From NCBI GenBank assembly GCA_951406725.2, contig OX597821.1, positions 26,226,001-26,290,000 of the forward strand: 64,000 bases of DNA. The letters are read 5' to 3'. This document shows positions 4,166 to 47,894 of the stretch, piece after piece (position 1 is the first letter of the stretch; each line of letters begins with the position of its first letter). The stretch is from Octopus vulgaris (Eukaryota). The translations under genes and the position numbers were made by a program. The notes under the pieces are model-generated. The model was given only the letters and a program-made list of their open reading frames with translations, did not search any database and was not told where the DNA came from.

Positions 4166-4309
4166 TGATTAACCGGAGTCCATAAAAGATTCTTTCGTTA
4201 AAATTTATCTGCGATAAATTGGTTATACTTTTGCAATGCACAAAATATTTTAACAATTTCTTTTTATACAATTCCTAATAATATTTACTTATAAATAGAA
4301 TTTTGTTTG

Positions 4310-5160
4310 TGCCTGAGATGGGAGGAATATGTGATCAACCGCAGAATATCATGGAATGAACTTTGGGCTTGGGAACAAGCAAGAACATCCTTCCTAATCA
4401 AGTCTACCTTCGACGTTCTACCCTCACCGGCGAACTTAGTCCGGTGGAACATAAAAACAACCGATGAGTGTAGATGCGGAGAGAAAGCGACGGTTAGACA
4501 TGTTCTGTCAAGTTGCAGACTAGCACTAGAAAGATATACATGGCAGCATAATCAAGTCCTCGGCGTCATAAGCGCAGCACTCAAGGAGAAGATCGAGAGG
4601 TACAATAGGGGAGAGTACCCAAAAGTAGAAAAGCACAGGAAAGTATACTTCTACAAGGAGGGAAAAGGATATAAAACCAGGCCTACAAGTAAAGTATACA
4701 AGATAGACGAAAGATGGAAGGGATACTGCGAGGTGGCCACGGACTTGGAAAGACAAGTAATATTTCCACTAATAAAAACAACAAAAAGACCGGATTTAGT
4801 TCTATGGAACAGAGACCGGAGAATGGGAATTTTACTAGAACTGACAGTACCTTGGGAAGAGAACATCGGCAATGTAGAGGAACGAAAGGAGAAGTGGTAC
4901 GAAAAGCTAATCGAAGAATGCAGAGAACAGGGATAGAATGTCGAATATTATCACCCTGCAGTGGGGGCTAGAGGCTTCATTGAAAGGAAAATGACAACGC
5001 TTTTCAAAAGATTTGTTTTTTTCTAGCTCCGAGCTGCGAAAACTAATGAGAGTACAGGAGGCGGTCGAAAAACCAGCTTCTATATATGGCTGAAGCGGGA
5101 AGACCGAAAATGGCTTGAAAGTCATAACATACCGGCGGGAAATAACATCATTAGGTGAGA
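4310..5160 (+). mobile_element. Hero/R2-group non-LTR retrotransposon, C-terminal CCHC and restriction-like endonuclease fragment
   Basis: ORF 4307-4936: CRC...HVLSSC...RYTWQHNQVL, RPDLVLW...LELTVPWEE...KEKWY; continues past a stop (AVGARGF...SFYIWLKRE). Confidence 0.85.
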
Positions 5161-5264: not shown

Positions 5265-5630
5265 GTCACGTGACAACTTGCTAGGGCTGCCTGCTGGAGC
5301 CTATGCGGCAGGTATTTAAAGGGGAAAATTTGACAAGTCAGTCAGTCACCGGCTGACACTCGCTGACGATACATCGAAGAGGCCAGGAAATAGAAGAAAG
5401 AAGAAAGAAGACATGCACCCAACACCAGAGCTGAAGACACCTCCGAAAGGGGGGGGGGGGGAGCCACGTCAAAACGGTAGAGGAGTAGGGGCCGAAACCG
5501 GACGTGGTTCCTCCTGATGATGTCTTGAGCTAACTGGATCCTATAAAGGAACTGTTGTGGTAGCAGACCACGAAACACGGTTGTAATTCCCCGACGACAT
5601 TATTCATTGAGTCATTCCATTTATTACTTT
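5265..5630 (+). mobile_element. Non-coding pseudo-LTR/retrozyme-like element with TATA/Inr-like signals and hammerhead motifs
   Basis: tatttaaa at about 5313, tcagtc repeats about 25 nt downstream; three CTGANGA and two GAAAC motifs. Confidence 0.55.
5464..5526 (+). ncRNA. Putative non-circularly permuted hammerhead ribozyme
   Basis: ccacgtc-aaaa-CGGT-A-gaggag-taggggcc-GAAA-ccg-gacgtgg-ttcctc-CTGATGA-tgtctt; stem I 6 bp, stem III 4+7 bp. Confidence 0.65.
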
Positions 5631-12425: not shown

Positions 12426-12560
12426 AGTAGATGGACAGCCGACAACTGATGAAGGGTCATTCTTTATGGTGTCATGTTTTCCATTTGTTTCTCTCGTTTA
12501 TGTATTTAACTGTTTTGTTTTCGTATTCCATGTTGTTTACGGTTTGTGACATCCTGTATT
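12426..12560 (+). mobile_element. Truncated copy of the 46950-47360 element (only the CUGAUGA strand retained)
   Basis: agtagat...cgacaaCTGATGAagggtcattctttat...catg...ttttccatttgtttc matches the reverse complement of about 46955-47103. Confidence 0.75.
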
Positions 12561-12645
12561 CATATATGCATATATATATATATATGTATGTATGTATGTA
12601 TGTGTGTACATATACATATACATATATATATATCCATCCATCCAT

Positions 12646-12685
<40 letters not shown>

Positions 12686-12739
12686 CATTTATATTATTAT
12701 ATACATACACTGTGTGTATGAGTGAAAATTGAAAGTTAA

Positions 12740-21261: not shown

Positions 21262-21555
21262 ATGTAAAAAAATACAAACTGGGACAAGAACGTGAAACAT
21301 TTAGAAGACGATACAAAAAACACGGACGGGACATTCGAAGCCTTCAATCTTCAGTCAAGAACCGGATCATCTTCGCAATTTCGGCTGATTAATCTTGAGA
21401 TTGCTCCGATCTGGCCAGCCCCAAAGGAAAATCTAAACCAAGCGCATTAGATTCCTTGGAAGAAAGCCTCGAATGTATACAAAACAAGGACGGAAAACCG
21501 GACGATGTTTCACGAATAAAAATACAAAAATACGTAAAAACAATAATGATAACAT
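21262..21555 (-). mobile_element. About 290-bp non-coding element in (TA)n with permuted hammerhead; second copy at 38499-38820
   Basis: Near-identical to the 38.5 kb copy; (TA)n on both sides. Confidence 0.85.
21339..21404 (-). ncRNA. Putative non-circularly permuted hammerhead ribozyme
   Basis: Minus: gcaa-TC-tcaaga-ttaatcagcc-GAAA-ttgc-...-tcttga-CTGAAGA-ttgaaggct; stems I and III perfect, stem II ambiguous. Confidence 0.6.
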
Positions 21556-23440: not shown

Positions 23441-23506
23441 GTAAGACAATTGTCGTGCTGATGACGCCTACTGAGGCTGAAACACGCGTCCCGATTGGCG
23501 TCTTAT
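23441..23506 (+). ncRNA. Type I hammerhead ribozyme motif with extended stem I
   Basis: gtaagac-aattg-tcgtg-CTGATGA-c-gcct-actg-aggc-t-GAAAC-acgc-GTC-ccga-ttggc-gtcttat. Confidence 0.7.
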
Positions 23507-38498: not shown

Positions 38499-38820
38499 TG
38501 TAAAAAAATACAAACTGGGACAAGAACGCAAAACTTTAGAAGACGATACAAAAGACACGGACGGGACATTCGAAGCCTTCAATCTTCAGTCAAGAACCGG
38601 ATCATCCTCGCAATTTCGGCTGATTAATCTTGAGATTGCTCCGTCCTGGCCAGCCCCAAAGGAAAATCTAAGCCAAGCGCATTAGATTCCTTGGAAGAAA
38701 GCCTCGAATGTATACAAAACAAGGACGGGAAAACGGACGATGTTACACGAATAAGAATACAAAAATACGTAAAAACAATAATGATAACACGAATAAGAAT
38801 ATGAAAATACGTAAAAACAA
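38499..38820 (-). mobile_element. Second copy of the 21.3 kb permuted-hammerhead element
   Basis: Near-identical to 21262-21555; in (TA)n. Confidence 0.85.
38574..38639 (-). ncRNA. Putative non-circularly permuted hammerhead ribozyme
   Basis: Same core and stems as 21339-21404. Confidence 0.6.
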
Positions 38821-46205: not shown

Positions 46206-46949
46206 TGATGGCTGCAAACTCGTGTTAGAGTATTGCCATCGTCTGATCGAAAGTCCCACACATGTGAAGGCCACGATCAGCCATTTTTGCGAAAGGTCTT
46301 ACATCTTTTTTTTCAAGCGATGGCTGTGCATGATGATTTTTTTTATAGTGGGAAAAGGATTTGCACAAATCCACTCTCTGAACATGGAGAACATAAACTC
46401 GAAAAAACAAACATCATCAAATATCATCAAATATTGTCAGTGCCACAGGTTTTCATTCTGAGTTTCTCTCTCTCCGAGAGAGATGTTGTGACAACAATTG
46501 AGAGACCTCCCACTCCAAGTGGGCCAACCGCGCAACTGGACACCAGCCCAGGTATTTCCATCTCCCCACGCAGACATACATGCATACTTACGCATGTATA
46601 CATATTGTTGGATGGCCGTTGACTGCTCATGAGCTCTTCCGCCCTTTCACAGGTCTTATATACATGCATACATACATACATACATACATACATACATACA
46701 TACATACATACATACATACATACGTACATACTTACATACATACACATAAATATATACATATGTAAATAAATAAATATATACACATATATACATATATGCA
46801 TACATATATATAATATAATATAATATAATATATATGTATATATATATATGAATATATACGTACATATATGCACAACTTACACACAGACACAAACACACAC
46901 ACACACACGCACGCACACATACACATACATATATGCATATGCATATATG

Positions 46950-47360
46950 GGTACAGGACATCATAGAACGTAAACAACATGAGATATGTAATACAAAAAC
47001 ATGGAATGCGAATTTTTTTGCGAACAACGAAAGAAACAAATGGAAAACAAGACATGTAGCATAAAGAATGACCCTTCATCAGCTGTCGACTATTTAATCT
47101 ACTCCGCATTTCGAGCAATTACGACAGGATGCGCTTACGTCAAAACAGTTGCTCCCGCAAAGCAAATTAAATAAAATTTAGGATTTGCAGAGGGTCAAAA
47201 TTGGTAACAAAATCAGGACAGTGAAAACAAACAGTAAGGACTGCTAAGCCATTACAAGCTTTGACAGGAGAAATAGATGAATGCGTCTTATCTCTGTAAC
47301 TGATCGAAAGGTAAGAAACTCAAACTAGCAAAAGAAAGATGGCCGAAGGCAATGAGAGAG
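46950..47360 (-). mobile_element. About 400-bp non-coding element with permuted hammerhead
   Basis: Partial second copy at 12426-12560; flanked by microsatellites. Confidence 0.7.
47067..47133 (-). ncRNA. Putative non-circularly permuted hammerhead ribozyme (clearest example)
   Basis: Minus: cgca-TC-ctgtcg-t-aattgctc-GAAA-tgcg-gagtagattaaatagt-cgacag-CTGATGA-a-gggtcatt. Confidence 0.72.
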
Positions 47361-47385
47361 TGAAGGACAAAGAGTGAGGAAGAGA

Positions 47386-47432
<47 letters not shown>

Positions 47433-47894
47433 CAGACAGAGAAAGGTGAAGGAGAAAGGAAAAGAATTAGAGAAAGGATTAGAGCGAAAAAGCGAAAGAA
47501 GGAGAAGAGGAGATAAAAGAATTAGAGAAAGGAAGAGAGAGGAAACGAAAAGGGAGAAAGAAAGAGAAATAGAATAAGAATCGCATCGAAATTATTAAGA
47601 TAAAACTTAATATATATATACGTATACATGTATAGGAGGAATTCCATGCACACACACACACACACACACATACATATATTTATGTATGTATGCATGTATG
47701 TATGGGTTGGAACATGGAAATATCTGGGTTGGGGCCCAGGCGCACGGTTGGCTAACTTGGAGTGTACATACATACATACATATATGTGTGTGTGTGCGTG
47801 CGTATGTACATATATATATATGTGTGTATATATGTATGAATATATATATGTATAAGATGTACGTTGCCTTGGACCGGAGCGGTCACGATTCTCT

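Follow-up and report, generated by a model that had tools for sequence, protein, structure and literature searches.

The minus strand of a 64,000-nt stretch of the Octopus vulgaris genome (contig OX597821.1, positions 26,226,001 to 26,290,000; hereafter the window) raises the question whether a hammerhead ribozyme can be assembled from strands that follow one another in a non-circular order and, if so, which strands take part. A preliminary description had placed such a motif at 47067..47133, and sequence readout located every piece that it named. Read 5′ to 3′ on the minus strand, these are the stem III 5′ strand cgcaU (47129..47133), which ends in U16.1; C17 with the first base after the predicted cut (47127..47128); the stem I 5′ strand cugucg (47122..47127); the strand drawn before GAAA (47113..47120); GAAA with the stem III 3′ strand ugcg (47105..47112, GAAA or G12 to A15.1 at 47112–47109 and ugcg at 47108–47105); the stem I 3′ strand cgacag (47083..47088); CUGAUGA (C3 to A9, 47076..47082); and an extra A (47075) followed by the downstream strand gggucauu (47074–47067). 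All catalytic core nucleotides claimed are present, i.e. CUGAUGA, GAAA and U-H (H not being G), and a pairing check reproduced the 6 bp of stem I and the 5 bp of stem III. The pieces do run in the asserted non-circular order (cleavage block, GAAA block, CUGAUGA), and the circular block order of types I, II and III does not occur at 47067..47133. Membership of the hammerhead class is indicated by stems I and III flanking the cut and by covariation, described below.

The rearranged-order descriptor search proposed in the preliminary description was run on the window, with the core, at least 4 pairs in each of stems I and III, and the order cleavage block, GAAA block, CUGAnGA. It returned four sites (CUGA at 47082, 38589 and 21354 on the minus strand and at 5514 on the plus strand), far above the single site found in 150 dinucleotide-preserving shuffles of the whole window, by which a chance motif was rejected. 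Adding an upstream stem II strand of at least 5 pairs left no site in the 150 shuffles. As predicted for standard descriptors, an Rfam scan gave no hammerhead match here at E values up to 10; the 150 of 253 window matches listed were nearly all microsatellite or miRNA noise. Nested folding did not yield the fold proposed below (z 0.37), a result limited by the program's inability to form pseudoknots.

The motif lies in a repeat, family F1, whose copy spans 46802..47609 (−; unit positions 54–917), misses approximately the first 50 bases and is flanked by (TA)n-type microsatellites. The F1 unit is ~820 bases long, and a first look yielded 4,433 candidates in the 2.8 Gb of the animal's own genome; 40 scored copies, the window itself aside, were 83–90% identical. 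Partial tandems, inverted 5′-truncated neighbours and (TA)n surroundings recur among them. For instance, a 5′-truncated F1 copy at 12435..12703 (+) starts 3′ of the cut and, of the whole motif, retains CUGAUGA and the stem I 3′ strand alone. As F1 combines 5′ truncation, partial tandems, inverted copies and (TA)n targets, the anatomy of Naiad-type Penelope-like elements, the host is on these sequence features an old, non-autonomous Penelope-like repeat, and in the window copy, itself an old insertion, the core happens to have survived. Of the GIY-YIG endonuclease and reverse transcriptase (RT) expected in a Naiad-type element or its partner, F1 has no attached RT, and it lacks a coding region. 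The tandem arrays of non-LTR retrozymes were not found, F1 copies being dispersed, at most partially tandem and not of type I.

Other sites in the window show the same block order in different sequence, namely two copies of a young family, F2 (21348..21420 and 38583..38655, both −, by descriptor), and one of F3 (5461..5520, +), in which the upstream stem II strand is degenerate. In total, seven families were compared: F1, F1b (1,945 candidates in the genome), F1c (88 exact motif matches), F2 (3,229 candidates; 1,487 exact motif matches), F3 (1,923 candidates), F4 (4,386 candidates) and the octopus Naiad family (151 exact matches to its consensus motif). The window motif is a real, conserved hammerhead-type RNA in non-circular order.

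It is in stem II that the preliminary description needs correction. Its partner for the strand before GAAA was the one following CUGAUGA (47067..47075 with the extra A); 7 of 8 positions do pair, but only four pairs are contiguous, and the stem as drawn is not supported. It had overlooked an upstream strand, gagcaa (47154–47149, −), which lies 5′ of the cleavage block, begins with G10.1 and pairs 6/6 with uugcuc (47113..47118, −), the stem II 3′ strand, which follows a 3-base linker and ends in C11.1. Duplex energies in the window copy are −6.4 kcal/mol with the upstream and −2.0 kcal/mol with the downstream strand.

Comparison between families favours the same strand. The majority sequences of F1 and F1b disagree at 8 of the 14 pairs that make up stems I, III and upstream II; each of the eight is altered on both sides, and no pair is broken. 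In upstream stem II alone, three of five pairs are doubly changed, compared with one double change, one single change and one mismatch for the downstream strand. Between F2 and F4, stems I, III and upstream II carry one double change apiece, and the downstream strand is unpaired at 4/5 positions. Downstream pairing of 4/5, weak and including G–U pairs, is kept in F1, F1b and F1c (four contiguous) and in F3, against 2/5 in F2 and 1/5 in F4, for both of which the upstream strand is the only good option. The claim of three intact blocks, with the stem II 5′ strand adjoining CUGAUGA, probably gives way to an upstream strand that is stronger in all families and covaries more fully.

The upstream strand pairs 5/5 in the majority of qualifying copies across the seven families, more weakly in F3; in all seven it sits 22–29 bases before the cut and its first base is a G opposite C11.1. 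Among copies passing the core filter, at least 4 pairs form in 20/27 of F1, 22/22 of F1b, 3/4 of F1c, 37/44 of F2, 5/5 of F4 and 11/11 of Naiad, and in only 9/26 of F3, the majority of which, with three contiguous pairs, fails. This strand was chosen, within 45 bases, as the best match starting with G, for which the chance per family is 0.08–0.22, and the F3 majority fails; the case therefore rests on recurrence, spacing, the constant G and covariation. Pair counts were anchored on the core; the MAFFT alignment gapped the stem II 3′ strand in F1b and F1c.

Within F1 alone the signal is narrower. Among 60 copies (63 rows minus one F1b row and two near-duplicates), pair III.3 (C-G in 31, U-A in 21) ranks 2 of 9,316 column pairs, stems I and II lack clear covariation (ranks 47 to 5,701), and most other top-ranking pairs arise from a misaligned indel. 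The first stem I pair is C-G in the window copy and U-A in most copies. Core conservation (0.95) is only slightly higher than that of other columns (0.89); all core elements are kept in 31/60 copies, and the core plus all three stems in 25/60. The downstream stem II is probably wrong and the upstream strand likely the stem II 5′ strand, in which case A9 is likely unlinked to G10.1.

The strand order as drawn in the preliminary description is already published as type SGC by Eckert et al. (2023; PMC10085705). The available parts of that paper report types SGC and CSG as proven active, place them solely in metatranscriptomes and metagenomes, with no type SGC in genomes of known organisms, and assume CUGAnGA to be contiguous with its adjacent paired strands, uninterrupted. 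Type SGC (HRIMA-1 and variants), as described there, shares with F1 the order of cleavage block, GAAA block and CUGAnGA, a linker of ~3 bases between stems I and II, a pseudoknotted core and an additional helix that joins these two stems. Its stem II strand directly follows CUGAnGA, with at most 1–2 extra bases, whereas that of F1 likely lies at the 5′ end, and it is known from metatranscriptomes, whereas the F1 layout occurs in an animal genome. That the window motif is nevertheless an ordinary type SGC ribozyme, with a short stem II made by the strand after CUGAUGA (an extra base, then GGG) and the upstream strand serving as an inhibitory or folding-intermediate switch, seems unlikely. Such a ribozyme would belong to a type of demonstrated activity, and the four contiguous downstream pairs of the F1 lineage, the 4/5 of F3 and the one double change between F1 and F1b are compatible with it; the low duplex energy is not, nor are F2 and F4, which barely pair downstream although F2 still piles up at the cut (see below). 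The extra base is no obstacle: a single base often separates positions 9 and 10.1 of Penelope hammerheads (PMC4209133, accessible text), from which it also follows that the 9/10.1 junction is tolerant. Coral and arthropod Naiad tails, in the portion of the PMC8557442 supplement inspected by eye, lack a downstream stem II partner.

A partial separation of strands is known from the PK hammerhead (Zhan et al. 2024; PMC11300833), which, in the passages available, resembles F1 in drawing helix II partly from a distant strand but holds A9, G10.1, C11.1 and G12 in the short stem of one loop, so that its core is continuous, whereas that of F1 is likely open. Within the literature searched, with subscription papers outside the search, we found no description of this open layout, no precedent for an active hammerhead without an A9–G10.1 link and no report of the rearranged hammerheads in animals, Xenopus included, that the preliminary description had mentioned.

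A fourth helix, P4, which the preliminary description had also overlooked, is formed by the linker after that strand (47139..47148, −) and the linker before the stem I 3′ strand. It has 8/10 pairs in the window copy, and a P4 duplex is present in 7/7 families. Between P4 and stem III, the F1 lineage has an internal loop of conserved, purine-rich sequence (GAAGR/GAGUA), which we take to resemble the loop E/sarcin-ricin motif; by pairing, its 3′ side (GAGUA) and the P4 3′ strand together occupy 47090..47104 (−). In the window copy the 5′ side (47134..47138, −; partner side 47100–47104, −) reads GUAAG, a damaged version of the family's GAAGG or GAAGA. A kink-turn was considered for F1 and rejected, the loop being GAAGR/GAGUA; the kink-turn consensus fits the corresponding loops of F2 and the Naiad family, which are presumably kink-turn-like.

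Taken in order, the elements would read II5′-P4a-III5′-UC-I5′-II3′-GAAA-III3′-P4b-I3′-CUGAUGA, with CUGAUGA as the final element of the fold. We consider it likely that this RNA is a single-chain, multiply pseudoknotted hammerhead in which A9 and G10.1 are unlinked, with a predicted cut after C17 (47128); the descriptor likewise assigns H17 to 47128, in agreement with the cut between 47128 and 47127 named in the preliminary description. In hammerhead chemistry, G12 acts as the base and G8 as the acid. Stems I, II and III of the proposed fold would build the usual active site, where A9, at which the core strand stops, would dock on G12. Replacing the loop–loop contact, P4 would clamp stems I and II together at their outer ends.

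Strands so arranged might also meet between molecules, the stem I 3′ strand and CUGAUGA of one tandem unit or molecule serving the stem II, cleavage and GAAA parts of another. We regard such trans assembly as very unlikely, although partial tandems and inverted copies of F1 occur and a dimer model has been put forward for minimal Penelope hammerheads (PMC4209133, accessible text), since a single unit can form all four helices in a span of ~80 bases, P4 is nested around stem III and, unlike in the dimer type, stem III is not palindromic. Minimal type I Penelope hammerheads and non-LTR retrozymes are like F1 in carrying the hammerhead in a terminal repeat (PMC4209133; bioRxiv 10.64898/2026.07.22.740005; available parts of both), but the minimal type I form has circular order, a minimal stem III and a presumed dimeric mode of action, in contrast to the long stem III and non-circular order of F1.

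Evidence bearing on cleavage comes from the 5′ ends of genomic copies, located relative to the first base after the cut in copies picked solely by a motif 3′ of the core. For F1 (99 of the first 100 listed among 131 exact matches), 20/99 copies start within −4..+10, compared with 13 in the 60 bases upstream and 12 in the 40 downstream, i.e. 1.33 starts per base vs. 0.22 and 0.30 (Poisson P 7e-8 against the higher flank rate). For F2 (the first 100 of 1,487 matches, all on contig 1), 23/100 start in the same interval, with 15 upstream and 15 downstream (1.53 per base vs. 0.25 and 0.37; P 2e-8). The peak window was picked after a first look at the data for F1 and set beforehand for F2. The peak has a sharp upstream edge at the cut, with no F1 start from −24 to −6 and one F2 start from −17 to −4. 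Of four F2 starts at −3, three match the (TA)n target by ATA, and the F2 starts at +7 and +9 coincide with TA microhomology. On the simplest reading, the 5′ end of a template would often have been generated by the ribozyme, and the pile-up, which backs the predicted site, is indirect evidence of cleavage in vivo. Least probable of all is a hammerhead-derived but non-catalytic structure, e.g. a reverse transcriptase binding site, with the pile-up due to enzyme pausing or TA microhomology: several F2 starts do lie on TA/AT microhomology and F3 tolerates a damaged upstream strand, but core bases, U-H and G10.1–C11.1 are kept across unrelated sequences, the pile-up ends sharply at the cut, and a reverse transcriptase at the cut would already have unwound the 3′ strands of all helices.

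The open, single-chain layout also connects F1 to Naiad elements. Craig et al. (2021; PMC8557442) reported that Naiads have no canonical hammerhead, labelling some of them half-core (Naiad_Ovul as HHR_half_core). The Penelope-like anatomy that they describe, with insertion at (TA)n, truncated 5′ ends, partial tandems and inverted copies, is common to F1 and Naiads. Tails were read by eye from passages of the supplement, which holds 54 consensus sequences (60 of 62 CTGATGA places and 10 places each of the 43, 25 and 23 for three other cores), and this reading is a partial sample. Within it, nine records have the open layout (three from Acropora, Obim, Ovul and four others), one further record has a stem I of only 2 pairs, six nematode-range records (three from Nippostrongylus and three others) have an intact type CSG with the same P4, and several tails fit neither. 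Naiad_Obim, for instance, has the same block order with different stems, and its upstream strand pairs 6/6 with the strand before GAAA. The RNA layout of F1 recurs in these Naiad tails, including that of Naiad_Ovul. In the octopus genome itself, the layout lies 1.1–1.4 kb downstream of a Penelope-type RT, on the same strand, in 3 of 30 Naiad-like RT loci. Unlike Naiads, F1 has no coding region; it was carried by none of these 30 loci, nor was an autonomous partner for it found among them. The RT of one locus (L181) had no match in other loci among the first 235.

Type CSG, which as published rested on two metagenomic sequences (PMC10085705, available parts), offers a second route to stem II. 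The window motif is not itself of this type, CUGAUGA being its 3′-most element with no intact C block 5′ of the cleavage block. Joined into a circle, the F1 RNA acquires the order of CSG, P4 then adjoining stems I and II; F1 differs from CSG in that P4b-I3′-CUGAnGA stands at the 3′ end and the chain opens between A9 and G10.1. Moving P4b-I3′-CUGAnGA from the 5′ end of CSG to the 3′ end produces exactly the F1 layout, and this rearrangement would independently identify the upstream strand as stem II.

On balance, we lean towards a broader reading, in which the ribozyme that seemed to be missing from Naiads and related retroelements, in hosts ranging from corals to cephalopods, would be a naturally occurring, active hammerhead. 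It would be assembled from four strands of one chain, with three crossing sets of helices and with A9 as the end of a catalytic strand detached from helix II. This ribozyme would set the 5′ end of the template and would have been circularly permuted from a CSG ancestor kept in nematode Naiads. In read-through transcripts of partial tandems, cleavage by the upstream ribozyme would fix where the template RNA begins; this template would be inserted at (TA)n by a reverse transcriptase/endonuclease of Penelope type acting in trans, and the 3′-most ribozyme would often be copied uncut. The origin may have been a circular permutation, by tandem duplication, of an intact type CSG form as in nematode Naiads.

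If this reading is true, the CUGAnGA and stem II strands are separable, against the working assumption behind published permutation searches, and a whole set of animal ribozymes is invisible to such searches, which would explain the apparent absence of hammerheads from Naiad elements. Non-circular hammerheads would move from unidentified metatranscriptome RNAs to animal genomes, in thousands of copies, and copy starts at the cut would be a rare in vivo footprint, bearing on the role of hammerheads in Penelope retrotransposition. The layout is amenable to testing with an RNA of 80–90 bases.

Several further features of the window were noticed. An open frame at 4295–4936 (+), ~540 bases upstream of the F3 motif, has a weak zf-RVT match alone and, with a CCHC knuckle and PD..ELTVPWEE, presumably resembles the C-terminus of a restriction-like-endonuclease non-LTR retrotransposon. 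Several F3 copies have the same upstream part, so an element outside the Penelope group may also carry the layout. A second CUGAAGA with a GAAA-capped hairpin behind it immediately precedes the F3 motif (5431–5465, +), and both are kept in most F3 copies; the G/C run that follows is highly variable, and its changes often disrupt the stem II strand upstream of the cut. What looks like a decayed canonical Penelope hammerhead lies at 23458–23490 (+), where CUGAUGA, then a short hairpin and then GAAA follow the usual order of type I. Versions of the layout distinct in sequence occur in the flanks of L068 (~1206), L448 (~213) and L225 (~808), all on the minus strand. Finally, a donor-like GTAAGT opens the F1 unit, with long tracts of pyrimidines and a CAG after it (1910–1920 and 2200–2250 in L028; ~47610 and ~47300 in the window), and the window copy starts inside this donor-like site. 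Penelope elements have a 5′ intron, to which the start of F1, with putative splicing, may be likened.
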